Origin: a bacterium
Lineage (GTDB): Bacteria > Chloroflexota > Anaerolineae > Aggregatilineales > Phototrophicaceae
DNA: 32,000 nt
Direction of reading: 5' to 3'
Assembly: GCA_033762735.1 (NCBI GenBank)
Contig: JANRLJ010000084.1
Coordinates: 61,158-93,157 of the forward strand
Shown here piece by piece: positions 8,033-20,920 of the stretch (position 1 is its first letter; each line of letters starts with the position of its first letter). The translations under genes and the position numbers were made by a program. Under the pieces are notes generated by a model that worked only from the letters and a program-made list of their open reading frames with translations, made no database searches and was not told the origin of the DNA.

Positions 8033-8875
8033 ATGACCATCACATCGCAGTCCTTCATCAATCAGGGTGAGCGCCTTCATTACCGCACTGCGGGCGACTC
8101 TCAGAATCCGCCCCTGGTGATGGTGCATGGCTGGACATCCTATTCCGGCTACTGGTGGCCGATCTTCGAGGCATTGGCGGATACCCATTACTGCATCGCC
8201 ATTGATCTGCTGGGGCACGGCAGCAGTGACAAACCCCGCGACGGCAATTACAGCATCACCACCAACACACGCCGGGTCCTCGCGCTGGCGGATCATCTGG
8301 GTCTGGACACGTTTACCTTCATCGGACATTCGATGGGCGGGCAGATTGGCTACAACATCGCCCTGCTGCACCCCGAACGGCTGGAACGGCTGATTACCAT
8401 TTCGGGCGTCGCCAGCGGCAGATTGTCGCGCTACATCCGCTGGGTGCATCTGCCCGTGTTTTATGTCGGGGCGATGCTGCCGTCAATCTACGAATTCAGC
8501 CGCCTCGCTGTACGGCGTAACTGGCGCTGGTACATGAACATCTTCGATCCGCCCATTGTGTACGACCCTTCCGCCTATCCGGTGGCTTCGATGGATCACC
8601 AGATGGCGCTTGTGCCGGGCGGCGAGATGGCCTTCTATCGTGAACTGGTGGAAATCCCTCGTCACGATTTAAGCGACCGCCTGCACGAAATTACCACGCC
8701 AACGCTCGTCATCTTCGGGCGACAGGACGGCACTGTTCCGCTGATGGATGCTTACCTAGCGGGCGGCTGCATCCCCAACGCTGAACTGGTGCTGATCGAC
8801 CGCTGCGGTCACAGTCCACTCACCGAACAACCCACGCAGGTGGTGGAAGCCGTGCGGCGCTTTCTGTACAGGTAA
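8033..8875 (+). CDS. Alpha/beta-fold hydrolase
   Basis: Oxyanion motif HGWTSY and nucleophile elbow GHSMGG, with late D and H (GRQDG, CGHSP). The track start at 7982 is TTG; ATG 8033 (MTITSQSF) is more plausible. Confidence 0.85.
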   Translation: MTITSQSFINQGERLHYRTAGDSQNPPLVMVHGWTSYSGYWWPIFEALADTHYCIAIDLLGHGSSDKPRDGNYSITTNTRRVLALADHLGLDTFTFIGHSMGGQIGYNIALLHPERLERLITISGVASGRLSRYIRWVHLPVFYVGAMLPSIYEFSRLAVRRNWRWYMNIFDPPIVYDPSAYPVASMDHQMALVPGGEMAFYRELVEIPRHDLSDRLHEITTPTLVIFGRQDGTVPLMDAYLAGGCIPNAELVLIDRCGHSPLTEQPTQVVEAVRRFLYR

Positions 8876-8881
8876 ACCAAA

Positions 8882-8901
8882 AGACACGGCTGACCGTGTC
8901 T
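8882..8901. terminator. Hairpin between convergent genes; possible terminator of the arl operon
   Basis: agacacgg-ctga-ccgtgtct: 8-bp perfect stem with a 4-nt loop. On the minus strand it is followed by tttggttt. There is no strong U tract on the plus strand. Confidence 0.4.
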
Positions 8902-8929
8902 CTGCACAAACGGCATTATCTGATAAACG

Positions 8930-10063
8930 TTACCCGGCACACTCCGGGTTATCCAGCGGACAGAGCCAGGGGTCTTCGGTCGTCCCCTCACCCACCCAAC
9001 CGCGCTTGCCTTCCCGATCTACATACCAGTGCCAGATATTGTACTCGCTCCACGTCCCGCAAACCGGCCCGGCCAGAATTTGCACCAGTTGACCATCGTA
9101 GACCTGCACCTGTGTATAGGCCGCGCCACCGTCGATTCGATCCATCAGCCGCAGCGCCCCCTCACCGTTAAAATCCACCACGACCCAGTCCCCGACCGCA
9201 AAGCGAATCGGGGGAGCGCCTTCACAGCTTAAAGCAGGGGGCGTCGGGCTGGGGATAACGTCAGGCGCAGCGACAGCCCCATCCACTTCTGCACCCGCCG
9301 CAGAGGGAATCGACTGATCGACGGTCACAGCAGGCGCCGTCATTACCGGAAAGGTAGCGGTCGGCGTGGGAAGTTCAACCCATCCGACGGCTGTCGTTGC
9401 TTCCGGTATGGACAGCGCAGGTGCGGCAGCGACCACGACCGACACAGGTGTCAGCGTCGCCAGCGGTACAGTATCGACCAGGGCTTCACCATTGGCTAAC
9501 GGCGACACGTAAGCGCGGATATCCATCGTCAGCGTATCCCCGTCCTGCCCCTCTCCCAGATTCAGCGTGTCGATCATCACACCCGGCACGGTCGCCTCGC
9601 GGATCTGAACCACGAAGCGCATCAGATCAGCCGCGTCACCGTTCACCTGTAAACGGAACAACCGCGTCTCATAAGGCAGCGTCTCGCTGGTCTGGACGCT
9701 CTGCTGCGTTTGCAGATTGGCAATCATGACGTGGTTGGCCTCGGCATAGGCATACAGCCGATCAAACAGGTCATCGACCTGATCGCTGGTCAAAAAGCTG
9801 CTGGCAGCCTGTGCCAGTTCGGTGCTGGCATTGTCAATACGTGCCGCGTACAGGGTGAGGTCGTCCTCATTCGCCGCCTCGGTATTGGTCGCGTTAAGCT
9901 GTGCCTGCTGTGACTCGCGCATCTGTGTCAGGCGGTCATAAGCCATCCAGTTCGGCAGGACAGAAGCCGCGCAAAACAGCGCATTCCCCACCACCAGCAT
10001 CAACACCAGCAGCAGCGGCAGCCGCCCCCGCCAGCGGGCAATCAGATCACTGACAGCGTTCAT
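8930..10063 (-). CDS. PilO-like type IV pilus assembly protein with a long Pro/Ala/Thr/Val linker and a C-terminal Cys-containing SH3b-like domain
   Basis: N-terminal TM (LPLLLVLMLVVGNALFCAA), then a coiled coil. PilO-type core: LPYETRLFRLQVNGDAADLMRFVVQIREATVPGVMIDTLNL...LTMDIRAYV. C-terminal domain: GPVCGTWSEYNIWHWYVDREGKRGWVGEG. Its ATG overlaps the stop of the upstream gene (ATGA). Confidence 0.6.
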   Translation of the reverse strand: MNAVSDLIARWRGRLPLLLVLMLVVGNALFCAASVLPNWMAYDRLTQMRESQQAQLNATNTEAANEDDLTLYAARIDNASTELAQAASSFLTSDQVDDLFDRLYAYAEANHVMIANLQTQQSVQTSETLPYETRLFRLQVNGDAADLMRFVVQIREATVPGVMIDTLNLGEGQDGDTLTMDIRAYVSPLANGEALVDTVPLATLTPVSVVVAAAPALSIPEATTAVGWVELPTPTATFPVMTAPAVTVDQSIPSAAGAEVDGAVAAPDVIPSPTPPALSCEGAPPIRFAVGDWVVVDFNGEGALRLMDRIDGGAAYTQVQVYDGQLVQILAGPVCGTWSEYNIWHWYVDREGKRGWVGEGTTEDPWLCPLDNPECAG

Positions 10064-10707
10064 ACGCGCTCCAGAATGAGGACAAACTCGACAAAATAGG
10101 CTTCGGTCAGCGGCTCGGACGGTGATCCGGTCACACCCTGCGGTGCGTCCTGTGCTGCGACAAGCGGCGGTGTCGGCGTCGGCACCGCCCGCAGCGCAAT
10201 CGACTGAACCGTCACCCGCGCGAACAGGCCACAGGTCTTGAGCGCATCCGCATACGCGGTGACAACTGCTTCGTCGCTGGCCTGACCATTGAGCGTGATG
10301 CGATTTTCCGCCTGAGCAATGCTGTGCAGTGTCAGTAACGCCGGATCATAATTCGAGATGTGCTGCATGGCGGTCGGCCAGTCCAGATGATCGGCGGCCA
10401 GTTCGGTCTGCACAGGCTGCAAGCCGACGATCTGTTCCTGAATGGCGACCAGCGTTGAGGAAAGTGCCTGTTCCTGGTCGGAAGGCGGCAGTGTCACCAG
10501 CAGTTGTTCTTCCATCTGCGCCATTTCGGCCTCTAGCGGCATGTTCAGGTCACGGATGGTCATGGAGACGATATTGAGCGCGGCGAACACCATGACCAGG
10601 CTGAGCGCGACAATCCAGATAATCCACCTTCCAAACCCGCCCTGACGCGGCGCAACGGGGATACTCACGTCTTGTTCTTCTGGAAAAGCAGGGTTTATTG
10701 GCTGCAT
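10060..10707 (-). CDS. PilN-like fimbrial assembly protein
   Basis: Short cytoplasmic N-terminus (MQPINPAFP), one TM (WIIWIVALSLVMVFAALNIV) and a coiled coil. PilN-type C-terminus: LTLHSIAQAENRITLNGQASDEAVVTAYADALKTCGLFARVTVQSI. SD aaggaaag lies upstream. Confidence 0.6.
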   Translation of the reverse strand: MQPINPAFPEEQDVSIPVAPRQGGFGRWIIWIVALSLVMVFAALNIVSMTIRDLNMPLEAEMAQMEEQLLVTLPPSDQEQALSSTLVAIQEQIVGLQPVQTELAADHLDWPTAMQHISNYDPALLTLHSIAQAENRITLNGQASDEAVVTAYADALKTCGLFARVTVQSIALRAVPTPTPPLVAAQDAPQGVTGSPSEPLTEAYFVEFVLILERV

Positions 10708-10722
10708 CGAGAGCTTTCCTTA

Positions 10723-11358
10723 TCACAGAGTCAAAAACGGATTGAAGACCAGCGCGATCATCGCTCCCAGGCAGAGGCACGGCGCATAGGGAAAGGTGAT
10801 CGAGCGCGACCGATGGCGCAGCAGCAGTCCCACCGCCAGCACACCGCCCATCCCCACACCGACAATCAGCGCCCACAGCACACCGGGAAATCCGAGCATC
10901 AGGCCGATCAGCAGCGCCAGCTTCACGTCGCCCATGCCCAGCCCGCCGGGTGAGATGAAGGCCGCGCCCATGAAGATCGTCAGGGCAAACCCACCGCCGA
11001 CCAGCACAAACAGGATCGGATGACCGAGCAGCACATGCGCCGTGAGCGTCAGCAGCAGCGCGGGGTAGATCATCAGGTTGAGCACCAGACGATAGCGCAG
11101 GTCGATCAGCGTGATAAGCAGGAAGAACATAAACAGCCCGGCCAGCAGAGCGAACTGTGCGGTTAACCCGTAAGCAGTAAACAGCAGGCCAAAGCTGGCC
11201 GCACCTGCAAGCATCACCGCATACAGCGGGATTACAACCCCCTGAACCGGTTCATCATACTGGTCGGTCGGCAGCAGCTTCCACTGTGGCAGCCGTTCAG
11301 TCACAAGCGCCGTCAAAGTGCCGCAAACTGCACCAAGCGCCGTTATCAGCACGATCAT
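10723..11358 (-). CDS. A24-family prepilin/prearchaellin peptidase (PibD/ArlK/TadV-like; no methyltransferase domain)
   Basis: Polytopic membrane protein carrying both aspartate motifs: LITLIDLRYRLV and GGLGMGDVKLALLIG (GxGDxK). Its ATG overlaps the upstream stop (ATGA at 11355-11358). Confidence 0.85.
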   Translation of the reverse strand: MIVLITALGAVCGTLTALVTERLPQWKLLPTDQYDEPVQGVVIPLYAVMLAGAASFGLLFTAYGLTAQFALLAGLFMFFLLITLIDLRYRLVLNLMIYPALLLTLTAHVLLGHPILFVLVGGGFALTIFMGAAFISPGGLGMGDVKLALLIGLMLGFPGVLWALIVGVGMGGVLAVGLLLRHRSRSITFPYAPCLCLGAMIALVFNPFLTL

Positions 11359-11885
11359 GCCTGCGCCTTTCCACCGAACGCGGCAGCGGTTTTGCTACAG
11401 AGAGCGGCCAGGTCGTGAATGTCGATCTGCGGCAGATCGCGGATCAGCACCGCCCGCTTTTCAGCATTATTGTCTTCGACAAACACACTCAGCAGATCGA
11501 GCATCGACTCCGACGCTGGCTTTGCGTCGGTCGTCGTTTCAGTCGACGTGACCGGGGTTGATGCGGCCTCTGGTTGGGCACTTGGGGCAGCGGACGCGGA
11601 CGTGCTTGCAGGCGCAGCGGAGGGACTCGTCGTTGTTGAGGCAGCCTTGGATGATGTATCGCGCAGTGTTATCACTGGTTCACTTTCTTCCAGCACTTCG
11701 CGTTCGGCCATTTCCCGTGCTGCCTGCTCCGCCGTTTCCTGCATTCTTCGCACAGCACGACGGGCGCGTATGGCTTTGAACATCGACAGCACACCAAGCA
11801 GCAGCGCCAGCAGCAGCAGCAGCCCCGCGCCGCCCAGCGTCAGCAGGACGAGCCTTTGATTGAGGAGTGCTTCAATCAGTGACAT
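11355..11885 (-). CDS. Single-pass membrane protein with a coiled coil and a Ser/Thr/Ala/Pro-rich linker; function unknown (ArlX-like topology only)
   Basis: TM helix LVLLTLGGAGLLLLLALLLGVL, a charged helix RRMQETAEQAAREMAEREVLEE, then a low-complexity region. It sits inside the operon, 25 nt after arlJ. I recognise no diagnostic motif. Confidence 0.5.
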   Translation of the reverse strand: MSLIEALLNQRLVLLTLGGAGLLLLLALLLGVLSMFKAIRARRAVRRMQETAEQAAREMAEREVLEESEPVITLRDTSSKAASTTTSPSAAPASTSASAAPSAQPEAASTPVTSTETTTDAKPASESMLDLLSVFVEDNNAEKRAVLIRDLPQIDIHDLAALCSKTAAAFGGKAQA

Positions 11886-11910
11886 GCGATTGCCTCTCGT
11901 ATGCGCCCGC

Positions 11911-13398
11911 TTAGAGCGTCAGAATTCCAGCCACCATCGGCGGCACGACCAGGAAGGAAATACCCGAAATGAACACCGTCAGCGCCAGATAGAACGCCAT
12001 CTTGACCCTGAAGCCGCCATCACACACGATAATGGCTGCCGCGCTGACCAGCGCCAGCAGCAGGATCATGCCTACGGTGATGGTGTGCAGAAATTGCAGA
12101 TCAGCGGCGGAAAACTCGGCCATGCCCAGGCTCATGTTGACCTGCCCGTTGGCGGCCTCCGTGTTCTGTGGCATCAGCGTGGCGACCAGCGCGGCGAAGT
12201 TGTTGATGATAGACAATACGAACACCATCAGTCCGGCGACCACGGCCTGCATGACGGTCGTCAGACCCGAAAATGTCCCGGCGGTCAGGCGGCGTTTGGC
12301 ACGGAGCTGAGTGGTTTTAGCGGCGAACAGCGAACACAGATAGCCCACGCGCTCCGGGTCACCACCGATTTTGACCGCGCCGTAGAAGATGTCGGTCACG
12401 GCGCTGATGAGCTTGCTGCCTGTGTCCTCCCCGAACTTGCGCCAGCACACCTCCGGCTCGACCAGCGCCTGCAAACGCTTGCTCAGGCGGTCGATGTCCG
12501 GTGCTAACGCCGGGAAGGAGGTTAAATCCATGCGGGTGAGCGCCTGCTTAAGCGTCGTCCCGGTCGAATTTGCCATACCGCCGACCGAACGCAGAAAGGT
12601 ACTGAACTCGGCATCGCGTTTAATGCGCTTCTTCTCGCTTGCCAGCGCGGCAATCCCGATGGGCAGCAGCAGCACCGCCACCCACATCAGCAGCCAACCC
12701 AGCGGCACACCCAGCAAATTCATCAGGGCGGCGCTGGCGAAGCATACCGGGATGAGCGTGCGAAACAACCGCATTGCCCGCTGCTGTTCAGGCGAGCCAT
12801 GAGATGGTTTGTTGGTCATTTTTTCACGCGGGGCGGAACGGTAAATAATCCAGGCCCCCATCACCGCCATCATGAAGCCCGTCATCACCAGACCGCCCAT
12901 GACCGTCACATCCATCGAATAAATCATGGAAGAGATCATCTGAATAATGACGATCAGCGCGACCGAGATCACAATCGAGGAAAAGGCATTCGACCACTGC
13001 TTCATCGCTTCCAGATCGCGCTCGTAGCGGTTTTCGTAGTCCTCGGCCTGTACCTCCGCCTCACGCGCCAAAAAATCCGCCAGCGGCTCGCCAGAGCGCA
13101 GCGCATCCGACAGGCGCAGCAGGAAGCTTTTCATGTTTTCTGATTTCGCCTTGCTCCCCACGCGGCGGCAGGCTTCGGGATAGTCATAGCGGAACTCATC
13201 CACCAGCGTGTTCACAGCAGCGAAATAGACCGCCGCGCCAGACGATGACTGTGCCGCGATCTGAAAAATCTTCCCCCGTGACAACCCGGCGGAGGCCATC
13301 GCGGAGAGATACGTCATCTGGTAGAACATATCGAAGGGCGAGACTGGCTTAAAGGAGTTTTTGTCTTCGCGCTTCGGCGAGGACGCCAAAGAGTTCAT
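11911..13398 (-). CDS. arlJ: Archaellum polytopic membrane platform protein ArlJ (FlaJ; T2SS-F/TadBC-like)
   Basis: 495 aa with many TM helices, the two-half architecture typical of FlaJ/TadBC, and a position directly after arlI. The start is uncertain. Start 13398 overlaps arlI by 50 nt. The alternative ATG at 13329 (MFYQMTYLSAMASAG) leaves a 19-nt gap. Confidence 0.8.
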   Translation of the reverse strand: MNSLASSPKREDKNSFKPVSPFDMFYQMTYLSAMASAGLSRGKIFQIAAQSSSGAAVYFAAVNTLVDEFRYDYPEACRRVGSKAKSENMKSFLLRLSDALRSGEPLADFLAREAEVQAEDYENRYERDLEAMKQWSNAFSSIVISVALIVIIQMISSMIYSMDVTVMGGLVMTGFMMAVMGAWIIYRSAPREKMTNKPSHGSPEQQRAMRLFRTLIPVCFASAALMNLLGVPLGWLLMWVAVLLLPIGIAALASEKKRIKRDAEFSTFLRSVGGMANSTGTTLKQALTRMDLTSFPALAPDIDRLSKRLQALVEPEVCWRKFGEDTGSKLISAVTDIFYGAVKIGGDPERVGYLCSLFAAKTTQLRAKRRLTAGTFSGLTTVMQAVVAGLMVFVLSIINNFAALVATLMPQNTEAANGQVNMSLGMAEFSAADLQFLHTITVGMILLLALVSAAAIIVCDGGFRVKMAFYLALTVFISGISFLVVPPMVAGILTL

Positions 13399-15043
13399 GA
13401 AAGTCCGTTACCCCTTTCTCTTTATGCAGCTTTTCCAGAATTTTGGCGCGGCGCTTCACCTCGTCGTAGATGTCCTTGCGACGATGCGGCGGGATCCCGC
13501 GCTTGATGGCGATGATCTGCTCCAGCAGGTAGCTGTTCATGTAACCGGGGAACTCAAACGTGTCGTTGGCCGGGTTCCAGCGGAAGGCCTCCAGGAACGA
13601 AAAGCTCTCCGTCAACGGGTCATAGCCGATGATTTCGTTGATGCTCAGCACACGACGCGCCGAACGGCCATCCGCCAGGCGCACGGCTGACTGAATCACC
13701 GCCAGGTTCAGATTGTCGATATAGGTCTTGGGGATGTTGATCGGATCGCCCGTGAGACGCTGGATGAGCTTTTCGACCGATGCCGCGTGAAAGGTGGACA
13801 TCACGCCGTGCCCGGTCTGCATTGCCTGGAACGCGACGACGGCTTCCATACTGCGGATTTCACCGACGATAATCATTTCAGGGCGCTGGCGCAGCGCGGC
13901 TTTGAGCAGTTCAAACATGCCTACGTCGCTGCCCTTCTTCTCTCCCCCGCCGTGCCGCGTGGATTCCTGCACCCAGTTCTTGTGCGGCACCTGCACTTCA
14001 GGCGTGTCCTCAATGGTCACGATTTTCGCATCAGGGCGGATAAAGGTGGTGATGGCGTTGAGCAGCGTGGTCTTGCCGGAAGCGGTCGCGCCCACCACAA
14101 AGCAGTTCATCCCGGCTTCCAGCATCAGCGAGAGATAGGCCGCCATCGTATAGTTGAGGCTGCCGAACTCGATCAGTTCGAGCACACTGGTTGGTGTGCC
14201 GGAAAACTTACGAATAGTGAAGTTGCTGCCTCGCTTGCTGATCTCCCGCCCATACACGATGTTGATACGCGAACCATCGGGCAGCACCGCATCCACCAGC
14301 GGATTGCGCACCGTCACCGGGCTTTTGATCCACTCCCCCAGCCACACGGCGAATTCGTCCACGTCGTCATAATCGACAAATTCAATGGACGACTGCACAC
14401 TCTTAAAAATCTTGTGTTCGATGAAGATATGGCCGACGCCGCTGCAACTGATGTCTTCGATATAGGGATCAAGCAGCAGCGGTTGCAGCACGCCCAGACC
14501 AATCTTGTCGCGCAGTACGCGATATCGAACCGCTTCAAGCTCACCCGGCGAGACATACACCAGCGGTTTGCGGAAGTTAATCGTCGCGTTTTTGTCCGTC
14601 GTGCAGATCGTATCCAGCAGATTAAGCAGCAGTGCCCGCTTTTCTTCCTTGTCTTCCACACGCCCGATTTGCTCAGCATAGATCACCAGCCGTTCCTCAA
14701 TCTGCGGCATCAGGTGGTCGATGTTGACGACCGAGGTCGGTTCAATCGGGATGTAATGATCGCGGGCGCCGGTAAAATCCGGGTAGATGTGGACGAACAG
14801 GCCTTCCTTGATCGGATAGATCAGGTTTTTCACGGGCAGATCGCTCAGGCTGCGCGCCACCTTCGGATAAAAGGCGGGTATGCCGATCTCGTCAATAGGA
14901 AGCCGCTGCACATAAGCGGCCAGGAAGGACGACTCTGCACAGGCCTTTTGCAGCGCTTCGGAAAGCTGGGGTTGCAGGCGTGCCCAGGCTTCACGGCTGG
15001 GCTGGAGGGCCTGACCATCAAACGGAAGTGTCGTTCTCGCCAT
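13349..15043 (-). CDS. arlI: Archaellum motor ATPase ArlI (FlaI; secretion ATPase superfamily)
   Basis: Walker A VVGATASGKTTLLNA, Asp box IVTIEDTPEV, Walker B RQRPEMIIVGEIR and His box GHGVMSTFHA. The N-terminal region DISCSGVGHIFIEH is typical of FlaI/VirB11-type ATPases. Confidence 0.9.
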   Translation of the reverse strand: MARTTLPFDGQALQPSREAWARLQPQLSEALQKACAESSFLAAYVQRLPIDEIGIPAFYPKVARSLSDLPVKNLIYPIKEGLFVHIYPDFTGARDHYIPIEPTSVVNIDHLMPQIEERLVIYAEQIGRVEDKEEKRALLLNLLDTICTTDKNATINFRKPLVYVSPGELEAVRYRVLRDKIGLGVLQPLLLDPYIEDISCSGVGHIFIEHKIFKSVQSSIEFVDYDDVDEFAVWLGEWIKSPVTVRNPLVDAVLPDGSRINIVYGREISKRGSNFTIRKFSGTPTSVLELIEFGSLNYTMAAYLSLMLEAGMNCFVVGATASGKTTLLNAITTFIRPDAKIVTIEDTPEVQVPHKNWVQESTRHGGGEKKGSDVGMFELLKAALRQRPEMIIVGEIRSMEAVVAFQAMQTGHGVMSTFHAASVEKLIQRLTGDPINIPKTYIDNLNLAVIQSAVRLADGRSARRVLSINEIIGYDPLTESFSFLEAFRWNPANDTFEFPGYMNSYLLEQIIAIKRGIPPHRRKDIYDEVKRRAKILEKLHKEKGVTDFHELFGVLAEARRQKLL

Positions 15044-15053
15044 AGGACTTTGC

Positions 15054-15764
15054 TTAACCTCGTGCCTTACTAATGGGGATCACACGCATCCCCCAGCCCG
15101 GTTCCACTTCAAAACCGACAATCGCGCCTGTCACGCTGCCCGCACCGCGCACCTTTGCCACTTCCAGCGTTTTGACGAGCCGCTGCCCATCCTGCTCTGA
15201 ACGCAGTTTTAAGTGCGCGTCACACATCGACCGCAGCGGCGCGATCAGTTCCTCGTCAAACGCCTTCGGATGCAGCGTGAGGATCACCGTCTGCCCGGTG
15301 GCGCAAAGCTGCTTGCACTGCTCGAAGAAGCTCAGGATTTGCCAGTCGGCGGATTTTTTCCCGGTCGCGGCGGTGAATGAGTCCACGATAATGACATCAC
15401 GATCCGGGTGCTGTTTAAGTGCATCGATGAGCGCGAACGGTGCTTTGTCTCCCAGCCGCGCCAGTGCCATGGGGTACACGCGCAGCTTGCGCAGCAGCAG
15501 AAAATCAAGCACATCCAGGTCGATGCTCTCCATCTGGCTCAGCAGGCTTTTGACCGTGTTCTCGCTGGTGAAGACGGCAGCGCTGAAGCCCTCCCGCAGC
15601 GCCCCGCTCAGGATTTGCTGGGAAAGGACAGACTTGCCTGCGCCGGAGGTGCCTTCGATCAGCGTCAGCGACCCGGCAGGCAGACCGCCGCCCATTTTGC
15701 TGTCCAGTTCGACGTTACCAGAGGAAATCGTCCGTTTTTTCGGACTATCAGGTGCGTTCTTCAT
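15054..15764 (-). CDS. arlH: KaiC/RecA-like ATP-binding protein ArlH (FlaH)
   Basis: 236 aa. Motifs VELDSKMGGGLPAGSLTLIEGTSGAGKSVLSQQ (Walker A) and DVIIVDSF (Walker B-like). It lies immediately upstream of arlI, as in archaeal arl operons. Confidence 0.8.
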   Translation of the reverse strand: MKNAPDSPKKRTISSGNVELDSKMGGGLPAGSLTLIEGTSGAGKSVLSQQILSGALREGFSAAVFTSENTVKSLLSQMESIDLDVLDFLLLRKLRVYPMALARLGDKAPFALIDALKQHPDRDVIIVDSFTAATGKKSADWQILSFFEQCKQLCATGQTVILTLHPKAFDEELIAPLRSMCDAHLKLRSEQDGQRLVKTLEVAKVRGAGSVTGAIVGFEVEPGWGMRVIPISKARG

Positions 15765-15788
15765 TGCGTCGGTCGCTTTCTTCGGCTG

Positions 15789-16925
15789 TCAGGGCATCGC
15801 CAGGTAGAACGTGAACGGGCCAATCGTCGCTTCGCCATCCGTGATGGTGAACTGGAAGCTGTCCAGGCCTGCCGCCAGACGGCTGTAGCCGACGGCGCCC
15901 GCGTCCAGATCAGCCTGGGTAAAGGTCGTCCCCGGCGTAAGCGTACCCAGGGTTGGCCCGCTGATGATGGTGTAGACCAGTTCGGCAGGCAGGTTATCCA
16001 CATCGGTTGCGGTCAGCGCCGCCGCCGGGATGCTCCCGCTGGCGCCTTCGGGCACAGTGATGATGGAATTGGTCGCCAGCACAGGCGCAGCGTTGGTCGT
16101 CATGATGGTAAAGGTATAGAGGCCGATCACGTCCTCGCCGTCGCTTACCTGGAACACGAAGCTGTCATTACCGTCGCCGGTGTGCGTGTATTCCAGCGCA
16201 TCCTCGTCGATCTGTGTCTGTGTGAACGTCGTCGGCAGGTTGAGTTCACCCTGTTCCGGCGGTGTCATCACGGTGAAAACCAGGTCTTCCGGCAGGTCAT
16301 CCAGATCAACGGCCTGCAAATGCGTAACGAGAATGTCAGCAGACGTGCGGCTTTCCAGCGTCAGCCCGGTATTGACCACCAGCACAGGCGGGACGTTGCG
16401 TATGGCCTGGACGGACACACCCGCGCCGTTGCCCGCAATCACCAGCGCGAGCAGGGTTTGACCATGCCCCACACCTGGCGCGACCTGAATTTGAATCACG
16501 ATTTCCTCGCCGGGATTGAGGATGCCGTTCTCAAACACTTCCGGCTGCGCTTTGGCCGCGTCCTGATAAATCCCGCTGACCTTCCAGGTATTGTCGAGCG
16601 CGCCGCCCCTATTGATGGGCACCCAGCGCACATGATATTCCGCGGCGTCCTGGGTATAGTACTGGACGATGATGTCCCACTGGTCGAAATTCACCAGTCG
16701 GTTTTCGCCCGTGTTGCGATAGGTCACCTCTGCCACCGTCCCACCGCCTGCGATGCGGGCGGCAACGGGCGTAAGGCTGGTGCGGCTTTGGTCATCAAGA
16801 CGGCTTTCCATCGTCTGCCATGCTTCCTGCACTTCGTTCTGAGCCTCGAAGAAGCGCGTCGTCAGCGTGAACGTCGCCAGCAGGAACAGGAGCAGAACAA
16901 CCAGACCAGACAGCACAGAGTCCAT
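15789..16925 (-). CDS. ArlF/ArlG-family protein (N-terminal TM plus beta-sandwich) with two C-terminal cadherin-like repeats
   Basis: N-terminus MDSVLSGLVVLLLFLLATFTL. The first 170 aa or so resemble FlaF/FlaG-type proteins. Residues about 177-376 are two units of about 95 aa sharing N-x-P/A-PVL...D-x-D-x-LP-x-x-LV-F/Y-T...TFTQ...D...DSF-x-F...DGE...IG...TF. Confidence 0.6.
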   Translation of the reverse strand: MDSVLSGLVVLLLFLLATFTLTTRFFEAQNEVQEAWQTMESRLDDQSRTSLTPVAARIAGGGTVAEVTYRNTGENRLVNFDQWDIIVQYYTQDAAEYHVRWVPINRGGALDNTWKVSGIYQDAAKAQPEVFENGILNPGEEIVIQIQVAPGVGHGQTLLALVIAGNGAGVSVQAIRNVPPVLVVNTGLTLESRTSADILVTHLQAVDLDDLPEDLVFTVMTPPEQGELNLPTTFTQTQIDEDALEYTHTGDGNDSFVFQVSDGEDVIGLYTFTIMTTNAAPVLATNSIITVPEGASGSIPAAALTATDVDNLPAELVYTIISGPTLGTLTPGTTFTQADLDAGAVGYSRLAAGLDSFQFTITDGEATIGPFTFYLAMP

Positions 16926-16928
16926 CGC

Positions 16929-17441
16929 TTACAGCCCCATAAAGGTTTCGTCTTCGACCCCGCTGGGAGTCACGACTTTGGCGAAGTAGCGCCCGCTGGT
17001 CAGGGGCAGCGAAAAACGGATGGTAATGCGCAGAGTGGCGGTCGGCGTCCATTCTGCTGCGTTTTCCACGGTCCATGTCCACGAAGGCAGGCTGCCGTTC
17101 GCAGCGCTTTCGTGCGGAATTCGCGCGAAATTGCCTTCCGGCCCAAAGAACACATCGAGCTGATCGACAGCGGTGATGCGGCTGTCGCCGATGTTCTTTA
17201 CCCATAAAAGGACATCAAACTGACCGTTGCCGTTGGTATCCTGCCACCAACCGGCGCTGTCCAGTTCACCCGTCGCGTGAATCAGGCGAATCTGCGTGCG
17301 CATCTGATCCTGGGTGCGCCCGGCCATGCTGGTGATGGCATCACCGCCCTCGACCACCGCCGGATAGGCAACGTTAAAAAGCATCACCGCCAGGATCATG
17401 CTGATGACAATGAGGAGCGCTGTGGTGATCGCTTTATCCAT
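16929..17441 (-). CDS. ArlF/ArlG-family protein (small; uncleaved archaellin-like N-terminal helix)
   Basis: I prefer ATG 17441 (MDKAITTALLIVISMILAVMLFNVAYPAV). It is preceded by ggaga and overlaps the upstream stop by 8 nt; the track start is 17483. The beta-rich remainder contains VLLWVKNIGDSRI. Synteny places it between the arlCDE-like gene and arlH. Confidence 0.6.
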   Translation of the reverse strand: MDKAITTALLIVISMILAVMLFNVAYPAVVEGGDAITSMAGRTQDQMRTQIRLIHATGELDSAGWWQDTNGNGQFDVLLWVKNIGDSRITAVDQLDVFFGPEGNFARIPHESAANGSLPSWTWTVENAAEWTPTATLRITIRFSLPLTSGRYFAKVVTPSGVEDETFMGL

Positions 17442-18234
17442 TGCGCTTTCTCCACTGGACACCGGCGCTGGCGTTGTGGACACCCGCGATCAACCGCAGC
17501 ACCATCTGGGAGCGCCCTTCAACCTTTTCCACTTCGGCAGTGGTGCGGGCAGGGGTTTTAGGAGTGGGCTTCTGTGGCGCGGGTGTGATCTGCACCGGAA
17601 CAGCGGCCCCTGACTTCTTCGCAGTTGGTTGTTCAGGGGCAGTCTTCGTCCTGGCGCTGACGACCGCCGTCTCGCGGCTGTCCCGCTCGGCAATCACTTC
17701 CTCATAAGTGGCAACCAGACGCAGAAGATCATCGCGCACCTTGCGGTTAAAGCGGCCTTCCTCGGCGTAGCGCCTGATAAGTTCACGTGTGCGCCTGGCA
17801 CCAATCCGCCCCACCTGTTCGCTCGCCCACCCTTCCAGCGCGGCCAGTGTCGTCCAATCGACTTCCTTCGAGGCAGGCGCAGCGCTTGATTTGCGAGCGG
17901 TTTTGGGCGCGGCAGGCGTGGGGGCAAGGCTGGTTTCCTCCTGCCAGCCTGTGCCGAGCTGGTCAACGCTCGTCACTTTTCTGACACTGGGCAGCGGTGC
18001 TTCGGGTGCGGGGTTGCTGGCCGCAGTCGCTTCCACTGGAGTGGTCGTGAAGGAGACGACGGACGGGCGATGCTGCGGAGCCGGATCGTCGGGATTGTCG
18101 CTGTTGCTCGTGCGCAGGGTGGGATGCGCACCGTTGAGCAGTTGTTCCTGAATATCGAGCAGGCTGGCTTGAATCTGCCCTTTCAGGATTTGGATTTCTT
18201 CTTCCAGTACCTTAACGCGCTGTTCGAGATCCAT
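17434..18234 (-). CDS. Coiled-coil protein, possibly ArlC/D/E-like archaellum accessory protein
   Basis: N-terminal coiled coil MDLEQRVKVLEEEIQILKGQIQASLLDIQEQL, then Pro/Ala/Thr-rich linkers. The segment VDWTTLAALEGWASEQVGRIGARRTRELIRRYAEEGRFNRKVRDDLLRL resembles, from memory, the FlaD/E-domain pattern (W..fL...vG..g....L.yY...G.i...v...L). It occupies the arlCDE/arlX position right after arlB. Coding status is more certain than the family call. Confidence 0.45.
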   Translation of the reverse strand: MDLEQRVKVLEEEIQILKGQIQASLLDIQEQLLNGAHPTLRTSNSDNPDDPAPQHRPSVVSFTTTPVEATAASNPAPEAPLPSVRKVTSVDQLGTGWQEETSLAPTPAAPKTARKSSAAPASKEVDWTTLAALEGWASEQVGRIGARRTRELIRRYAEEGRFNRKVRDDLLRLVATYEEVIAERDSRETAVVSARTKTAPEQPTAKKSGAAVPVQITPAPQKPTPKTPARTTAEVEKVEGRSQMVLRLIAGVHNASAGVQWRKRNG

Positions 18235-18329
18235 AACGCACCTGAGAGTGTTTCGCTTGTCGTACTGTCGGGAGATTGAAAGGTATTTTTGATGCGCTTT
18301 TGAAAATTAATTTTTTATAGTTTGAGGCC

Positions 18330-18358
18330 GGGGCGGCACTTTTTTGAAGAACCGCCCC
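18330..18358 (-). other. Stem-loop just downstream of the archaellin stop codon
   Basis: ggggcgg / ccgcccc 7-bp GC stem with a 15-nt loop, 37 nt after the arlB stop. No U tract follows on the minus strand, so I do not call it a canonical terminator. Confidence 0.3.
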
Positions 18359-18394
18359 TCCTTGCCAGACGAATTCGCTGTACAGACCGGGAGA

Positions 18395-18964
18395 TTAGAA
18401 TTCGTTGACCGCTTCAATCGCCGGGGGCGTGGTGCGGGCGAAGGTCAGAACCGCGCCCGTCGGGGGTTTCACTTCCAGCGTGAATTCGGTGTTCGGGCCG
18501 AGGTTGGCAGCGGCCAGCGGCACGGTGATTTCCACCAGTTCGCCTTCTTCCAGCAGATCGTCAGCATCCGCCGTGCCAGCAGCGCCATCGACATCCACGA
18601 TCCAGGTCGCAGTCCAGTTCAGCCCCGTCAGAATTTGCGTGTTGTCGCGATAGTCGATCACCACCACACGGTTGGCATCATTCATGTTGACCGGTTCGCC
18701 ACCTGCGACGAGCTGCAGCGAGAAGCGCACGTTGGTCACTTCGTTGGTCGCACCTTCGGCGAGGATGGAACCCTTGACCTGCATCGAGGACTGAACGCCT
18801 TCCAGACCAGCAGCAATCGCCTGTTCGCCGCGTTCCGTAGAGGCTGTACCAGCAGACAGGATGGTGAAGGCGAAGACCGACGCGACGACGACGAAAGCGA
18901 TGAGGATGATGGCGGTTTCCAGGGCAGTCTGACCACGCTGTTCTTTGTTGAAGTTGTTGAACAT
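18395..18964 (-). CDS. arlB: Archaellin (archaeal flagellin) ArlB with a class III signal peptide
   Basis: I prefer ATG 18964 (track start 19066). N-terminus [39 protein letters not shown] has a short basic leader ending in RG, followed by the hydrophobic helix. The body has archaellin-like features: [16 protein letters not shown]...[29 protein letters not shown]. Confidence 0.85.
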
Positions 18965-19612
18965 GATGTTTGCTTTTCCTTTTGGTATGTTGTTTGGCTT
19001 CGGATGGTTGATTGGTCTTGTATTGCTCAAGGGCTTCGGATACTTATGCTTATCAGACGTACTCAATGGTGCTAGGTCAAGTTGGTTGGCTCTATGCGAA
19101 GTCGTCTGTGTACTCCCTTCTTCATCGTGCAGTTTCCATGGAGAAATACCCGGCGGACAACGTTGTCAACCAGCAGTGACCGGGCTTCCCATGAAGGCGT
19201 TCGTTGGTGAGGAGAATTTCAAAGTATGTGGCAGAACTACGCAGGTCTAACGGTGATTCGGCTGGGCTGCGATGTAGAGTTCGTTGTGCCTGGTACTTGA
19301 ATACTGCTCTCCGTCATTGATTTCATCCTATTGCCAGAATTGAGATGTGTCAATAGAGCAACAATTAATTTTTCCGTCGTTAATTGTTTTTTCAGAAATT
19401 AGTCATCGACTTTTCCGACAAATGTCACATTCCTGCTTTAATTTGATGATTCTTTCTTGATAAAGGGCGAAAAATTGAGAAATTGTGTTCCTTAAATTCA
19501 ATAATTGACGGCTGCGGATGGCATTTTTACGCATGTATCACAATTCTAACGCACCAGATTCAAGCAGACAAAGCATTAAGGTTTTCTATTAGTTTCTTCA
19601 ATTGAAGGCCAT

Positions 19613-19681: not shown

Positions 19682-20881
19682 ATGCGGATACTTTTATCGT
19701 TTATGGGCGGCAGCGGGCATTTTCTGCCGCTGGTTTCGATTGCCCATGCAGCACAGGACACCGGACATGAAGTAGCCTTTGTCAGTGGTGGGTCGATGCA
19801 ACCGACCGTCGAGACAATGGGCTTTTCGGTGGTGAATAACGCTGTTGAAAGGCCAGAAGCACAACCCCCTCAGCGCCTTTCCTTGCAAACGGTGAATGTA
19901 AAACGCGAGGAAGACGACCTGCGGGAGAAATTCGCCCGTCATGCTGCCCGTTCACGCGCCGCGGAAATGCTTGAGGTGTGTGCCAGATGGATGCCTGATG
20001 TCATCGTCTGCGATGAGGTCGATTTTGGCAGTATGATCGCCGGGGAAAAGCTCGGAATCCCTTATGCCAGCGTGGTCGTGATCGCATCGGGTTCGTTCAT
20101 TCGTCTGGAGGTGGTCGGTGAAGCGCTAAACGAGGTTCGAGCAGGATACCATCTTCCGCCCGATTCTGAGCTGAAGATGCTCTCGCGCGATCTCGTCCTG
20201 ACTCCTGTCCCACGCAGCTTTCGCGACCCGGCCTTTCCCCTGCCCCCGACCGCCCATCTCATCCGACCGGAGATGCCAGAGGCGCAACCATCAGCACTGT
20301 CGATCTCGTTTCCGGAGCCAGACCGCCCACTCGTCTATTTCACGCTGGGCACGATCTTCAATCTGGAGTCGGGCGATCTGTTCACCCGCGTTCTGGAAGG
20401 GCTGCGCGATCTGCCGATCAACGTTGTGATGACGGTCGGCCCGCACATCCAGCCAGCAGAATTCGGCGCACAGCCCGACCATATCCATATCGCACAGTAC
20501 ATCCCGCAGGCCAGCATCCTGCCACACTGTGCGGCGGTCATCTCGCACGGCGGTTCTGGCAGCGTGATCGCAGCGCTGGCGCATGGCCTGCCGATGGTGC
20601 TGCTGCCAATGGGGGCAGATCAGCCGCACAACGCCGCCCGGTGCGAAGCGCTTGGTGTCGCCCGTGTGCTGGATGTGGTGGCGGCAGCGCCAACCCTGAT
20701 TCGGGATGCGCTCAAGGCCGTCTTGAGTGAACCGTCCTACCGTGCCGCCGCCAAAGGCCTGCGCGATGAAATCGCCGCGATGCCGCATCCCTCATCCGCC
20801 GTGCCGCTGCTGGAACGTCTTGCGACAGACAAATCAGCGTTTCGTAGTATGAGACACACATGTCAAGTATACCGGACATGA
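19682..20881 (+). CDS. GT1-family (GT-B fold, MGT/UDP-glycosyltransferase-like) glycosyltransferase
   Basis: N-terminus MRILLSFMGGSGHFLPLVSIA. C-terminal nucleotide-sugar motif HGGSGSVIAALAHGLPMVLLPMGADQPHNA, typical of macrolide/sterol-type GT1 enzymes. Confidence 0.85.
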   Translation: MRILLSFMGGSGHFLPLVSIAHAAQDTGHEVAFVSGGSMQPTVETMGFSVVNNAVERPEAQPPQRLSLQTVNVKREEDDLREKFARHAARSRAAEMLEVCARWMPDVIVCDEVDFGSMIAGEKLGIPYASVVVIASGSFIRLEVVGEALNEVRAGYHLPPDSELKMLSRDLVLTPVPRSFRDPAFPLPPTAHLIRPEMPEAQPSALSISFPEPDRPLVYFTLGTIFNLESGDLFTRVLEGLRDLPINVVMTVGPHIQPAEFGAQPDHIHIAQYIPQASILPHCAAVISHGGSGSVIAALAHGLPMVLLPMGADQPHNAARCEALGVARVLDVVAAAPTLIRDALKAVLSEPSYRAAAKGLRDEIAAMPHPSSAVPLLERLATDKSAFRSMRHTCQVYRT

Positions 20882-20890
20882 AACGGCAAC

Positions 20891-20920
20891 AAAAAACCGC
20901 CAGCGGGTGTGCTGACGGTT
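20891..20920. repeat. Left copy of a perfect 30-bp direct repeat (terminator hairpin copy)
   Basis: aaaaaaccgccagcgggtgtgctgacggtt is identical base for base to 23047-23076. It contains the hairpin ccgccagc-gggtgt-gctgacgg. On the minus strand the hairpin is followed by T6. Confidence 0.9.

Follow-up and report, generated by a model that had tools for sequence, protein, structure and literature searches.

Organization of the gene cluster

The window analysed here is a 32,000-nucleotide stretch of DNA in which eleven co-directional open reading frames, all on the minus strand, occupy positions 8930-19066. They encode the archaellin ArlB, an ArlC/D/E-like protein, ArlG, ArlF, ArlH, ArlI, ArlJ, a small membrane protein, an A24 peptidase, and PilN-like and PilO-like proteins (Table 1); a preliminary description had given the same count and orientation. 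That description had also reported gaps of at most 25 nt, ATGA-type overlaps and a 160-nt gap after the archaellin gene. We indeed find gaps of 3-25 nt, 4-nt overlaps and the 160-nt gap, but this account overlooks two 50-nt overlaps: one between the arlI and arlJ ORFs, which recurs identically in a related locus (L002), and one between the arlG ORF and its upstream gene, which exists only when a GTG start is used. The MDKAITT with which relatives of arlG begin sets its start at 17441, with a gap of 2 nt. This compact spacing is consistent with a single operon.

Table 1. Features of the arl cluster and its leader region, in the order of transcription (positions in the window).
Feature	ORF	Adopted coordinates	Strand	Evidence
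Sigma-70-like promoter candidate, TTGACA-17-TAGGAT		19325..19353	-	Consensus scan, 10/12 matches
arlB, archaellin with class III signal peptide	18395-19066	18395..18964	-	Arch_flagellin, 9i5h, homologue-based start
arlB-distal 160-nt spacer, G+C-rich hairpin (GGGGCGGU...GCCGCCCC)		18235..18394	-	RNA fold
ArlC/D/E-like protein, 266 aa	17434-18234	17434..18234	-	Synteny and architecture
arlG, stator filament protein	16929-17483	16929..17441	-	NCBIfam ArlG, PDB 5tug/6pbk, Pfam
arlF, stator cap protein with two C-terminal cadherin-like domains	15789-16925	15789..16925	-	AF2 model, Foldseek, Pfam Cadherin_3
arlH, KaiC/RecA-like regulator of ArlI	15054-15764	15054..15764	-	NF004723, PDB 4yds, Walker motifs
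arlI, motor and assembly ATPase	13349-15043	13349..15043	-	NF058587, PDB 4ii7, ATPase motifs
arlJ, membrane platform protein	11911-13398	11911..13398	-	NF004703, Pfam T2SSF
Small single-pass membrane protein	11355-11885	11355..11885	-	Recurrence and architecture
Class III / prepilin signal peptidase (A24 aspartic protease)	10723-11358	10723..11358	-	Pfam Peptidase_A24, GMGDVK motif
PilN-like bitopic membrane protein	10060-10707	10060..10707	-	Pfam PilN 24.2 bits, cut-off 22.8
PilO-like protein, Cys-containing beta-rich C-terminal domain (~280-377)	8930-10063	8930..10063	-	Pfam PilO, sub-threshold; syntenic homologues

Filament, motor and stator proteins

The filament subunit is, as had been supposed, an archaellin and not a Flp or type IV pilin: it scores 99.7 bits against Pfam Arch_flagellin (cut-off 29.5) and matches the cryo-EM structure of a bacterial archaellin (PDB 9i5h, 'Flagellin') with an E-value of 1.2e-51 and a near-identical N-terminal helix. 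Its N-terminus, predicted to read QTALETAI... after cleavage, is the only archaellin-like one in the window. Homologues, like the mature N-terminus in 9i5h, point to the ATG at 18964 as the start codon; the earlier end at 19066, a TTG, was over-extended. About 40 nt past the arlB stop codon, the spacer folds into a hairpin with an 8-bp GC stem, although the region as a whole has a z-score of only -1.15 and the hairpin is not followed by a canonical U-tract. It is possibly a partial terminator, a candidate for setting the ratio of filament to motor expression.

The assignment of the KaiC-like gene to ArlH holds, with 243.7 bits against the FlaH subfamily model NF004723 (cut-off 194), 210.4 bits against the equivalog model (under its cut-off of 215), 123 bits against the FlaH structure, and intact Walker A (GTSGAGKS) and Walker B (VIIVD) motifs. 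ArlI reaches 640 bits on the FlaI equivalog model (cut-off 550) as opposed to 162 on TadA and 70 on PilB; among solved structures, the match to FlaI reaches 439 bits and that to CpaF 152, and the protein carries Walker A (GATASGKTT), Walker B (MIIVGE) and TGH motifs. ArlJ scores 386.8 bits on the ArlJ/FlaJ model, under the equivalog cut-off of 570; its only three NCBIfam matches are all ArlJ models, and Pfam T2SSF matches it in two stretches.

If generic components were the sole guide, the cluster could be taken for a Tad/Flp or type IVa pilus locus: T2SSE, T2SSF, Peptidase_A24, PilN and PilO are common to all type IV filament systems, and GenBank names ArlJ a 'type II secretion system F family protein'. 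That the cluster is such a pilus locus is, however, scarcely conceivable given the scores of ArlI and ArlJ, which had rightly been set apart from the Tad/Flp type, and the presence of ArlH, ArlG and ArlF together with a subunit of Arch_flagellin type matching the solved structure of an archaellum filament. Neither Flp, a TadB/C pair, PilM, PilQ nor PilT was found among the ORFs or by profile searches. Tad/Flp systems (CpaF/TadA, TadB/C, Flp, TadV) share a T2SSE ATPase, a T2SSF platform and an A24 peptidase with the window locus but lack ArlH, the ArlF/G stator and an Arch_flagellin subunit, and TadA/CpaF give the window ATPase far lower scores than FlaI does. Extension and retraction, not rotation, are the movements of Tad pili. 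They belong to the same type IV filament superfamily and derive from an archaeal ancestor (PMC12488501).

ArlG matches the NCBIfam ArlG model at 32.6 bits, in the same range as the ArlG proteins of archaeal arl2 loci (33-47 bits), the soluble domain of FlaG in PDB at E 3.6e-8, and Pfam Arch_flagellin at 28 bits. Both ArlG and ArlF fall under the NCBIfam equivalog cut-offs, as do their archaeal arl2 counterparts. The AF2 model of the 378-aa ArlF (pLDDT 94.2) consists of a helix (2-47), a beta-sandwich (51-175) and two Ig/cadherin-like domains (181-277 and 282-376). Foldseek aligns this model with Sulfolobus acidocaldarius FlaF (4p94/4zbh; target TM 0.77-0.85, rmsd 2.4-2.6 A) and, beyond the FlaF-like part, with cadherin ectodomains, in agreement with Pfam Cadherin_3 (3e-38). 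The ArlF-cadherin fusion family comprises at least 58 protein clusters.

The protein encoded between arlB and arlG found no family match of its own in Pfam and NCBIfam profile searches. Its N-terminal coiled coil is followed by a linker of low complexity and, at the C-terminus, by a helical domain that contains an invariant Trp; both this architecture and its position are those of the intervening gene in Chloroflexota and Methanosarcinales/Methanoxibalbensis loci. The four archaeal counterparts tested match Pfam Arch_fla_DE weakly (13.6-17 bits; cut-off 21), and one further member of the alignment does so at E 5.8e-4. Synteny, shared architecture and these sub-threshold matches in homologues indicate that it is likely an ArlC/D/E-like protein.

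Genes downstream of arlJ

The small membrane protein combines a TM helix, a basic stretch, an Ala/Pro/Ser/Thr-rich linker and a conserved C-terminal motif, (M)xDLLxSVFxxE..., and Pfam and NCBIfam profile searches gave no significant family match. At least 12 Anaerolineae loci, but no archaeal locus compared, encode a protein with the same architecture and motif directly 3' of arlJ. The A24 peptidase (Pfam Peptidase_A24, 39.5 bits; cut-off 26.5) should process ArlB; 35 related loci contain a copy of its gene, which in 30 of them lies downstream of arlJ in the same orientation.

The synteny of the PilN-like gene is kept in about 33 loci. Its PilO-like neighbour scores 17.3 bits on Pfam PilO, under the cut-off of 22, and nine of 26 syntenic homologues match PilO (best E 1.9e-7). 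The AF2 model of this protein is unusable (pLDDT 42.6). Its C-terminal domain occurs also in loci L003, L008, L009, L011, L014 and L015 and bears weak similarity to domains in the window proteins at 4013-4540 and 728-2614; across loci, the C-terminal modules of PilO-like proteins are interchangeable. We found no description of these modules, of the ArlF-cadherin fusion or of the post-arlJ membrane protein in the papers on bacterial archaella that we consulted.

Genomic context and origin

Both flanks are bacterial, as first thought, with a LonA of Chloroflexota type: it has 100% identity to MDX1992617.1, followed among named relatives by sequences from Chloroflexota, Anaerolineae and Caldilineae. 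The flanking family-A polymerase-like and RmlC genes were also named correctly, but the supposed GalE is a generic SDR oxidoreductase, and the PilN/O-like genes that had been counted as flank are members of the co-directional cluster. G+C content is, as stated previously, the same in the operon (0.59) as in the flanks (0.58 and 0.61).

Because the source is a MAG, and because we found no independent assembly with the same flank junctions, one might suspect that an archaeal fragment was joined onto bacterial DNA during assembly or binning. Several lines of evidence make this highly improbable, in keeping with the original view of the contig. Besides the matching G+C, tetranucleotide usage of the operon correlates with that of the flanks at 0.89 and 0.91 (flank against flank, 0.85), whereas operon and flanks both differ from archaeal loci (r 0.15-0.63). 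ArlJ, ArlH and Lon have near-consecutive accessions (MDX1992606, 608, 617) on one 102,233-bp contig. A bacterial-type A24 peptidase, PilN and PilO lie inside the cluster, and about 35 independent Anaerolineae MAG loci, from unrelated studies, repeat the gene order including peptidase-pilN-pilO. In a neighbor-joining tree of ArlI, the window sequence falls inside the Chloroflexota clade, nesting with Aggregatilineales/Anaerolineae MAGs (L002, L001, L004-L006), and not among the archaeal sequences, which, though few were sampled, are the most distant.

The locus was most likely passed on vertically inside its Anaerolineae lineage. The bacterial flanks, shared composition, recurrence in some 35 loci and nesting of ArlI support, as the preliminary description had it, an old and by now domesticated cross-domain transfer rather than contamination. 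Published phylogenies place the original source in Methanotecta-type Euryarchaeota, and the order arlB-(arlCDE-like)-arlG-arlF-arlH-arlI-arlJ agrees with that published for arl2 loci (PMC12488501). The Methanotecta arl2 loci (Methanosarcinales, Ca. Methanoxibalbensis, Archaeoglobus) share this core order and an archaellin N-terminus of the type G|xTxLE(A/T)AI, and the first ArlI relatives outside Chloroflexota, from Methanoxibalbensis and Methanosarcinales, are 51-54% identical. These loci have neither the A24 peptidase-PilN-PilO tail of the window locus nor its post-arlJ membrane protein, and their ArlF (~170 aa) has no cadherin-like domains.

Comparison with other bacterial archaella

The nearest relatives are Aggregatilineales/Anaerolineae loci (e.g., MAGs JBGAGR01, JALHNT01 and JBGAHG01), with identities of 80-82% for ArlI, 68-70% for ArlJ and 63-69% for ArlH. 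They share the gene order, including the ArlF-cadherin fusion, the post-arlJ membrane protein and peptidase-pilN-pilO (except L001, whose contig stops about 1 kb past arlJ), but they have no flanking genes in common with the window. In several of them a further gene of about 560 aa, absent from the window, separates the gene for the small membrane protein from that for the peptidase, and the PilO C-terminal module varies by locus.

Sivabalasarma et al. (Nat Microbiol 2025; PMC12488501) reported on 243 Chloroflexota genomes and showed that Litorilinea aerophila (Caldilineales), the source of the 9i5h filament, assembles an archaellum and swims. Its locus, likewise of arl2 type, resembles that of the window in having an arlCDE-like gene, arlG before arlF, arlHIJ and PilN/PilO-like genes nearby, and its archaellin (E 1e-51) has the same N-terminal helix and acidic LLExGELxEITV stretch. 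There are also differences. The window ArlI shares only about 56% identity with that of L047, an L. aerophila-like locus in which ArlF has 175 aa, the gene for the A24 peptidase is placed between arlF and arlH, and pilN is found upstream; in the window, peptidase-pilN-pilO is directly downstream of arlJ. The L. aerophila-type PilO ends in LysM rather than a Cys-containing beta domain, and the post-arlJ membrane protein further distinguishes the window locus. Within Aggregatilineales, Aggregatilinea lenta is arl-positive (Lim et al. 2023, PMC10444878; preprint 10.64898/2026.05.11.724246). The initial caveat that arl-like loci had been reported in Chloroflexota was therefore apt: since bacterial archaella were described and shown to work in 2023-2025 (Lim 2023; Sivabalasarma 2025), with follow-ups in 2026, the window locus is a further example, not a discovery.

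Function of the locus

The identities and order of the genes, their uninterrupted ORFs, the intact ATPase motifs, the fold of ArlF, the kinship with other loci and the bacterial setting are established directly, and the claim of a complete archaellum operon in a bacterial chromosome is confirmed by family and structure matches and by the flanks. We consider it very probable that this is a bona fide arl2-type archaellum locus of an uncultured Aggregatilineales-like member of the Anaerolineae (Chloroflexota), vertically inherited and, by homology, driving a rotating filament.

Expression, filament assembly, rotation and swimming in the source organism, and the roles of the bacterial additions, we infer as follows. 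The in-cluster A24 peptidase would cleave pre-ArlB after Gly11; on the ArlJ platform, a hexamer of ArlI under modulation by ArlH would spend ATP first on assembling the ArlB filament and then on its rotation; a stator of ArlG and ArlF would hold the motor against the cell envelope; and the ArlC/D/E-like protein may provide a cytoplasmic ring or switch interface. The Methanotecta hosts have an S-layer and no peptidoglycan. The ArlF cadherin-like domains, the PilN/PilO-like pair, whose PilO-like C-terminal domain is putatively wall-binding, and the post-arlJ membrane protein appear to suit the apparatus to an envelope that contains peptidoglycan. The adaptor that connects archaella to chemotaxis in archaea, CheF, is reported to be absent in Chloroflexota.

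A different use of the same parts would be a non-rotating adhesive filament or pilus, with the ArlF extension and PilN/PilO serving attachment instead of torque anchoring. Cadherin-like domains are of a kind typical of adhesins, PilN and PilO belong to the pilus alignment complex, and many Chloroflexota are filamentous and described as non-motile (PMC12488501). We nevertheless regard this as unlikely: every rotation-specific part (ArlH, the stator pair ArlG/ArlF and the gene of ArlCDE type) is kept intact, the cluster has no retraction ATPase, the cadherin-like domains sit on a stator protein and not on the filament subunit, and the related L. aerophila system drives swimming.

An archaellum locus could also look intact and yet be a silent or decaying relic that is functionless at present. 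The only promoter candidates are sigma-70-like, including the one in Table 1 in an AT-rich stretch upstream of arlB, and a consensus scan found such sites no more often there than in shuffles; moreover, the L. aerophila locus is expressed only in particular conditions (PMC12488501). Decay is nonetheless quite improbable for eleven uninterrupted, compactly spaced ORFs with intact ATPase motifs, whose order and sequence are conserved over dozens of lineages (ArlI identity 60-82%) and whose ArlF alignment contains many invariant columns.

Archaellum identity of the operon

Eleven co-directional open reading frames on the minus strand fill window positions 8930-19066, as the preliminary description had stated, and the operon that they form is an archaellum locus of the arl2 type (published order arlB-(arlCDE)-arlG-arlF-arlH-arlI-arlJ), i.e., a further member of the bacterial archaella already described. 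Archaellum clusters were reported in 2023 from SAR202, Litorilinea aerophila and Aggregatilinea lenta; in 2025, archaellum clusters were recorded in 243 Chloroflexota genomes out of 3,780, the filament of L. aerophila was resolved at 2.7 Å and swimming was demonstrated (PMC12488501), and follow-ups in 2026 dealt with the envelope and with chemosensory coupling. The general phenomenon, a complete archaeal rotary motor moved to bacteria and working there, is important and has been established by that work of 2023-2025. The early caveat that arl loci might already have been reported from Chloroflexota was therefore sound, and what goes beyond the literature here might be limited to observations on accessory genes.

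The claim of an archaellin with a class III signal peptide is upheld by several matches. ArlB scores 99.7 bits on Pfam Arch_flagellin (cut-off 29.5) and 22.3 bits on the TIGR02537 N-terminal domain model (cut-off 20), it matches the bacterial archaellum filament PDB 9i5h at E 1.2e-51 with an identical 28-residue N-terminal helix, and it carries the cleavage motif KEQRG/QTALE (cleavage at the slash), with a predicted leader of 11 residues. The frame as first drawn, running up to a TTG at 19066, was over-extended: in homologues the signal-peptide motif follows a few residues after the start, and Q12 of the shorter protein aligns with the first residue of the solved subunit, which places the true start at the ATG at 18964.

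Both nucleotide-binding proteins, whose Walker A and B motifs are intact, proved to be of the archaellum kind. ArlI is the archaellum ATPase and is distinct from pilus ATPases, with 640 bits on the FlaI equivalog NF058587 (cut-off 550) and 439 bits against FlaI in the PDB (4ii7) vs. 152 for CpaF and about 50 for PilT. The KaiC-like gene encodes ArlH, a type of protein absent from pili: it passes the cut-off of the FlaH subfamily model NF004723 (243.7 bits vs. 194) and matches FlaH (PDB 4yds) at E 1e-34, with 210.4 bits on the equivalog model, below its cut-off of 215. A Tad/Flp pilus was rejected on the low TadA score of ArlI (161.8 bits, cut-off 373), far below that on FlaI, on the single platform gene of ArlJ type, and on the Arch_flagellin-type subunit. 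A type IVa pilus was rejected in turn, since ArlI reaches about 70 bits on PilB/PilT models (cut-offs 319-676) and the only pilus-like genes are the PilN-like one (24.2 bits, cut-off 22.8) and the PilO-like one (17.3 bits, cut-off 22); scans of the window detected no PilM, PilP, PilQ or PilT.

The remaining components of this archaellum score lower on existing models. ArlJ matches only ArlJ/FlaJ models, at 386.8, 261 and 223.5 bits, each below its equivalog cut-off (570, 400 and 550, respectively), and it is syntenic with archaeal ArlJ at 29-36% identity. ArlG reaches 32.6 bits on the NCBIfam ArlG model and matches PDB FlaG (5tug) at E 3.6e-8; ArlF reaches 19.7 bits on the NCBIfam ArlF model, in its N-terminal domain; and the coordinates give the order arlG, then arlF. 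Together with the structural model of ArlF described below, these matches indicate that the operon includes the stator pair. Low scores on these models are not peculiar to bacteria, since ArlG and ArlF of archaeal arl2 loci (Methanosarcinales, Methanoxibalbensis and an uncultured archaeon) also reach only 29-47 bits; those of L047, an L. aerophila-like Caldilineaceae locus, reach 26-29 bits. The signal peptidase in the gene run, of class III (PibD/FlaK/PilD type), passes Peptidase_A24 (39.5 bits, cut-off 26.5); no NCBIfam or PDB match assigned it to an archaeal or a bacterial subtype, and PDB sequence searches with ArlJ, ArlF and the peptidase returned no matches.

Between arlB and arlG lies a gene for a 266-aa protein with an N-terminal coiled coil (LExExxxLKxxIQxxLLDIQE), a low-complexity linker and a C-terminal helical domain containing an invariant Trp. 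The protein has no family match of its own, and its three parts recur in the products of genes at this position in archaeal arl2 loci and other Chloroflexota loci. Each of the four archaeal counterparts tested gives a sub-threshold Arch_fla_DE match in the C-terminal domain (13.6-17 bits, cut-off 21), and one other member of the family alignment reaches E 5.8e-4. A profile search with the C-terminal domain retrieved eight short proteins with no Pfam label and, as all were unannotated, added no support for ArlD/E. On the basis of the common position and architecture and of the sub-threshold matches in homologues, we name the gene putatively ArlC/D/E-like, in agreement with the report that most Chloroflexota arl loci encode arlCDE homologues (PMC12488501). 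The cytoplasmic accessory proteins are ArlC/D/E in euryarchaeal archaella and ArlX in thermoproteotal ones.

Gene layout

The packing was first described as gaps of 25 nt or less, or short overlaps, apart from a 160-nt gap after the archaellin gene. The coordinates bear out most of this: 4-nt overlaps join pilO to pilN and the peptidase gene to orf176, the gaps measure 15 nt (pilN/peptidase), 25 nt (orf176/arlJ), 10 nt (arlI/arlH), 24 nt (arlH/arlF) and 3 nt (arlF/arlG), and the 160-nt gap follows arlB. What departs from the description is a 50-nt overlap of arlI and arlJ, which is probably real because L002, one of the closest related loci, shows the same 50-nt overlap. A pattern scan of the arlB-distal spacer yielded no terminator; the hairpin that it contains, which has no U-tract, could possibly serve as one.

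Features of the operon, relatives of orf176 in other loci, and genes of the low-G+C island
Feature	Position	Strand	Basis
arlB	18395-18964	minus	Arch_flagellin, 9i5h
ArlC/D/E-like gene (putative), 266 aa	17434-18234	minus	position and architecture; no family match of its own
arlG	16929-17441	minus	NCBIfam ArlG, PDB FlaG
arlF	15789-16925	minus	NCBIfam ArlF, Cadherin_3, AF2/Foldseek
arlH	15054-15764	minus	FlaH subfamily model, PDB 4yds
arlI	13349-15043	minus	FlaI equivalog, PDB FlaI
arlJ	11911-13398	minus	ArlJ/FlaJ models only
orf176, 176-aa membrane protein	11355-11885	minus	no family match
A24 signal peptidase	10723-11358	minus	Peptidase_A24
PilN-like	10060-10707	minus	Pfam PilN
PilO-like	8930-10063	minus	sub-threshold PilO
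orf176 relative	L001:13151-13678
orf176 relative	L002:12613-13161
orf176 relative	L004:13152-13763
Island gene	22013-22939	minus	weak HATPase_c/STAS, weak DrmA match
Island gene	21626-21988	minus	DUF4325, STAS-like
Island gene	20980-21618	minus	weak PIN

Relatives, host and flanking genes

A scan with one genome per species returned 588 relatives of ArlI. The best were from Aggregatilineales and Anaerolineae MAGs (80-82% identity), followed by other Anaerolineae, Caldilineae and Dehalococcoidia, and the first archaeal relatives, from Ca. Methanoxibalbensis and Methanosarcinales, shared 51-54% identity. In an NJ tree of 80 sequences, five of them archaeal (four in the printed tree) and with no pilus ATPase as outgroup, the ArlI of the window groups with L002, L001 and L004-L006 (Aggregatilineales/Anaerolineae MAGs), and the four archaeal sequences of the printed tree form the most distant group; within that sampling ArlI belongs with Chloroflexota and apart from Archaea. 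Its placement matches the published picture of a single arl2 transfer from Methanotecta-like Euryarchaeota to the ancestor of archaellated Dehalococcoidia and Anaerolineae, followed by vertical descent (Sivabalasarma 2025).

Archaeal contamination was rejected on the following grounds. First, composition is shared: G+C is 0.59 in the operon and 0.58 and 0.61 in the flanks, confirming the likeness noted at the outset, and tetranucleotide correlations are 0.89 and 0.91 between operon and flanks, 0.85 between the two flanks, and 0.82-0.88 between flanks and Aggregatilineales loci vs. 0.15-0.63 against archaeal loci. Second, genes of bacterial type (the A24 peptidase, PilN and PilO) stand inside the co-directional cluster. 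Third, about 35 MAG loci, recovered in unrelated studies, show this entire arrangement.

The right flank holds LonA (TIGR00763, 936 bits), a family-A polymerase-like gene, an MCP gene, RmlC and an SDR. Of the bacterial genes originally named there, LonA, the polymerase-like gene and RmlC stand, and the supposed GalE at 30634-31428 is a generic SDR by NCBIfam. The polymerase-like protein (25866-27734, 622 aa) scores 109 bits against a PolA cut-off of 720 and resembles 'bifunctional 3'-5' exonuclease/DNA polymerase' models; by these profile matches it is not a canonical PolA. Lon is 100% identical to MDX1992617.1 (endopeptidase La), ArlH is MDX1992608.1 and ArlJ is MDX1992606.1, near-consecutive accessions that are each recorded on a 102,233-bp contig. 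The next named relatives of Lon are all from Chloroflexota (Anaerolineae or Caldilineae, 63-77% identity), and the source MAG is Aggregatilineales-like. The only Rfam match was a tRNA, tRNA-Leu(TAA), in the left flank at 4577-4659.

Flank genes are rarely shared with related loci: lon and the glycosyltransferase, hydrolase and polymerase genes have relatives in none of 80, and the MCP gene is the exception among those tested, with relatives in 7 of 80. In the metagenome scan, relatives of the flanking glycosyltransferase shared at most 59% identity and did not adjoin arl genes, and neither that scan nor the related loci yielded an independent assembly in which the flank junctions recur; the evidence for contiguity at both operon borders consists of composition and the deposited contig.

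The glycosyltransferase gene (19682-20881, GT1-family, MGT/UDP-glycosyltransferase-like) and arlB are divergently oriented, with an AT-rich region of 700 bp between them. Since the L. aerophila archaellin is O-glycosylated, its product could, by analogy, modify the archaellin; the gene is not conserved beside arl loci in relatives.

Between this gene and lon lies a 2.1-kb island (20891-23076) with a G+C of 0.36 vs. about 0.59 and a tetranucleotide correlation with the rest of 0.15-0.25. A perfect direct repeat of 30 nt, AAAAAACCGCCAGCGGGTGTGCTGACGGTT, marks its two ends (20891-20920 and 23047-23076); the repeat is itself a bidirectional terminator-like hairpin. The island looks like a recent insertion with target-site duplication; among its genes, PADLOC found only a weak DrmA-like match (1.3e-5).

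Accessory features of the Aggregatilineales-type loci

The C-terminal half of ArlF matches Pfam Cadherin_3 at 3e-38. An AF2 model built from an alignment of 41 homologues (pLDDT 94.2) comprises a helix (residues 2-47), a beta-sandwich (51-175) and two Ig/cadherin-like domains (181-277 and 282-376). In Foldseek, the sandwich superposes on the soluble domain of S. acidocaldarius FlaF (4p94/4zbh; target TM 0.77-0.85, rmsd 2.4-2.6 Å), and for the rest the matches are to ectodomains of cadherins and protocadherins and to repeats of bacterial adhesins or S-layers. The extension of about 200 residues that forms the two cadherin-like domains occurs only in the closest, Aggregatilineales-like clade of related loci (L001-L014, L036); the ArlF of other Chloroflexota and of Archaea has about 165-175 aa. 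The fusion family includes at least 58 cluster representatives, most of about 377 aa, named 'hypothetical', 'cadherin-like' or, twice, 'FlaF'. The archaellum papers PMC12488501 and PMC13319060 make no mention of cadherin, and a literature search returned no paper pairing 'ArlF' with 'cadherin'. GenBank names for the operon proteins are similarly generic ('cadherin-like domain-containing protein', 'type II secretion system F family protein', 'ATPase domain-containing protein'), and surveys based on taxonomy labels or product names can miss such loci.

At least 12 Anaerolineae loci have a gene of the orf176 type directly 3' of arlJ, and no archaeal locus has one there. These proteins are small and single-pass and share a conserved motif at the C-terminus (MQDLLSSVFxDE...); the basic stretch that follows the N-terminal TM helix suggests that the remainder is cytoplasmic. 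This topology recalls ArlX, and the likeness is limited to topology. In L002 and L004, an extra gene of about 560 aa, absent from the window, lies between the orf176-type gene and the peptidase (L002:13171-14844, L004:13760-15442).

The A24 peptidase gene is just downstream of arlJ in about 30 Anaerolineae loci, in contrast to L047, where a homologue (7912-8619) falls between arlF and arlH; the N-terminus of ArlB from this Caldilineaceae MAG matches the 9i5h chain. The L. aerophila peptidase was placed outside the arl locus (PMC12488501).

PilO was matched by 9 of 26 syntenic homologues of the PilO-like protein (best 1.9e-7), and their C-terminal modules differ between loci (L002-L041): 11 of the 26 proteins examined have LysM, the window protein and six relatives have a Cys-containing (Cys-rich) beta domain, and lectin-like, TPR or other domains occur elsewhere. 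A 2026 Frontiers paper (PMC13319060), using BLASTP with L. aerophila queries, counted only 3 genomes out of 244 with PilO-LysM near the locus and 34 with pilN/pilO; given the source of those queries and the 11 of 26 found here, the association of PilO-LysM with arl may have been under-counted. For the C-terminal domain of the window protein, the AF2 model, based on three aligned window sequences, was unusable (pLDDT 42.6), and we do not assert the label 'SH3-like', the sole basis of which was a match with an E-value of 0.17. The Cys-containing domain (...V.AGP.C....W.V...G..GW.AEG...) is common to three otherwise unrelated window proteins (728-2614, 4013-4540 and the PilO-like protein, 8930-10063), with weak similarity (pairwise E 2e-4 to 8e-4), a hint that the module came from among the host's own proteins.

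It is possible, although we would put it a little short of even, that Aggregatilineales-type loci carry a set of adaptations to the bacterial envelope that has yet to be described: ArlF with its two cadherin-like domains, the lineage-specific membrane protein after arlJ, the A24 peptidase, PilN and PilO brought into the operon, and an interchangeable wall-binding C-terminus of PilO (LysM, Cys-rich beta, lectin-like or TPR). Because archaeal ArlF binds the S-layer and stator anchoring is essential for torque, adaptation to the bacterial wall is a plausible hypothesis for these features. If true, it would account for the anchoring of an archaeal rotary stator in a monoderm wall that contains peptidoglycan. 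Stator anchoring in the bacterial envelope is an open question of the 2025-2026 papers, for which the ArlF-cadherin fusion, the swapped PilO modules and orf176 are three testable candidates.

Probable mechanism and chemosensory context

The analysis itself shows what the genes are, that the motifs are intact and how ArlF folds; from homology with archaeal systems and L. aerophila we infer how the parts would act together. The A24 peptidase would remove the 11-residue leader of ArlB; an ArlI hexamer on ArlJ, regulated by ArlH, would couple ATP hydrolysis to filament assembly and then to rotation; ArlG filaments capped by ArlF would form the stator; and the ArlC/D/E-like protein would provide the cytoplasmic interface. 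Among bacteria, an ATP-driven rotating filament that gives swimming is known from L. aerophila only (PMC12488501).

Within the 32-kb window there are no flagellar genes and no cheA, cheW or cheY, and CheF has been reported absent from Chloroflexota. On the published pattern, an Aggregatilineales genome would be expected to have an ACF-type chemosensory system and to lack flagellar genes. The MCP gene (27812-28936) is about 9 kb from arlB, and MCP homologues lie upstream of arl in several related loci (L022, L026, L028, L029, L031 and L032). In L017, from an Ardenticatenaceae MAG, several open reading frames that resemble response regulators in their N-terminal sequences lie between arlF and arlI (7565-9988), which suggests that signalling genes may have been inserted into the arl locus in some lineages.
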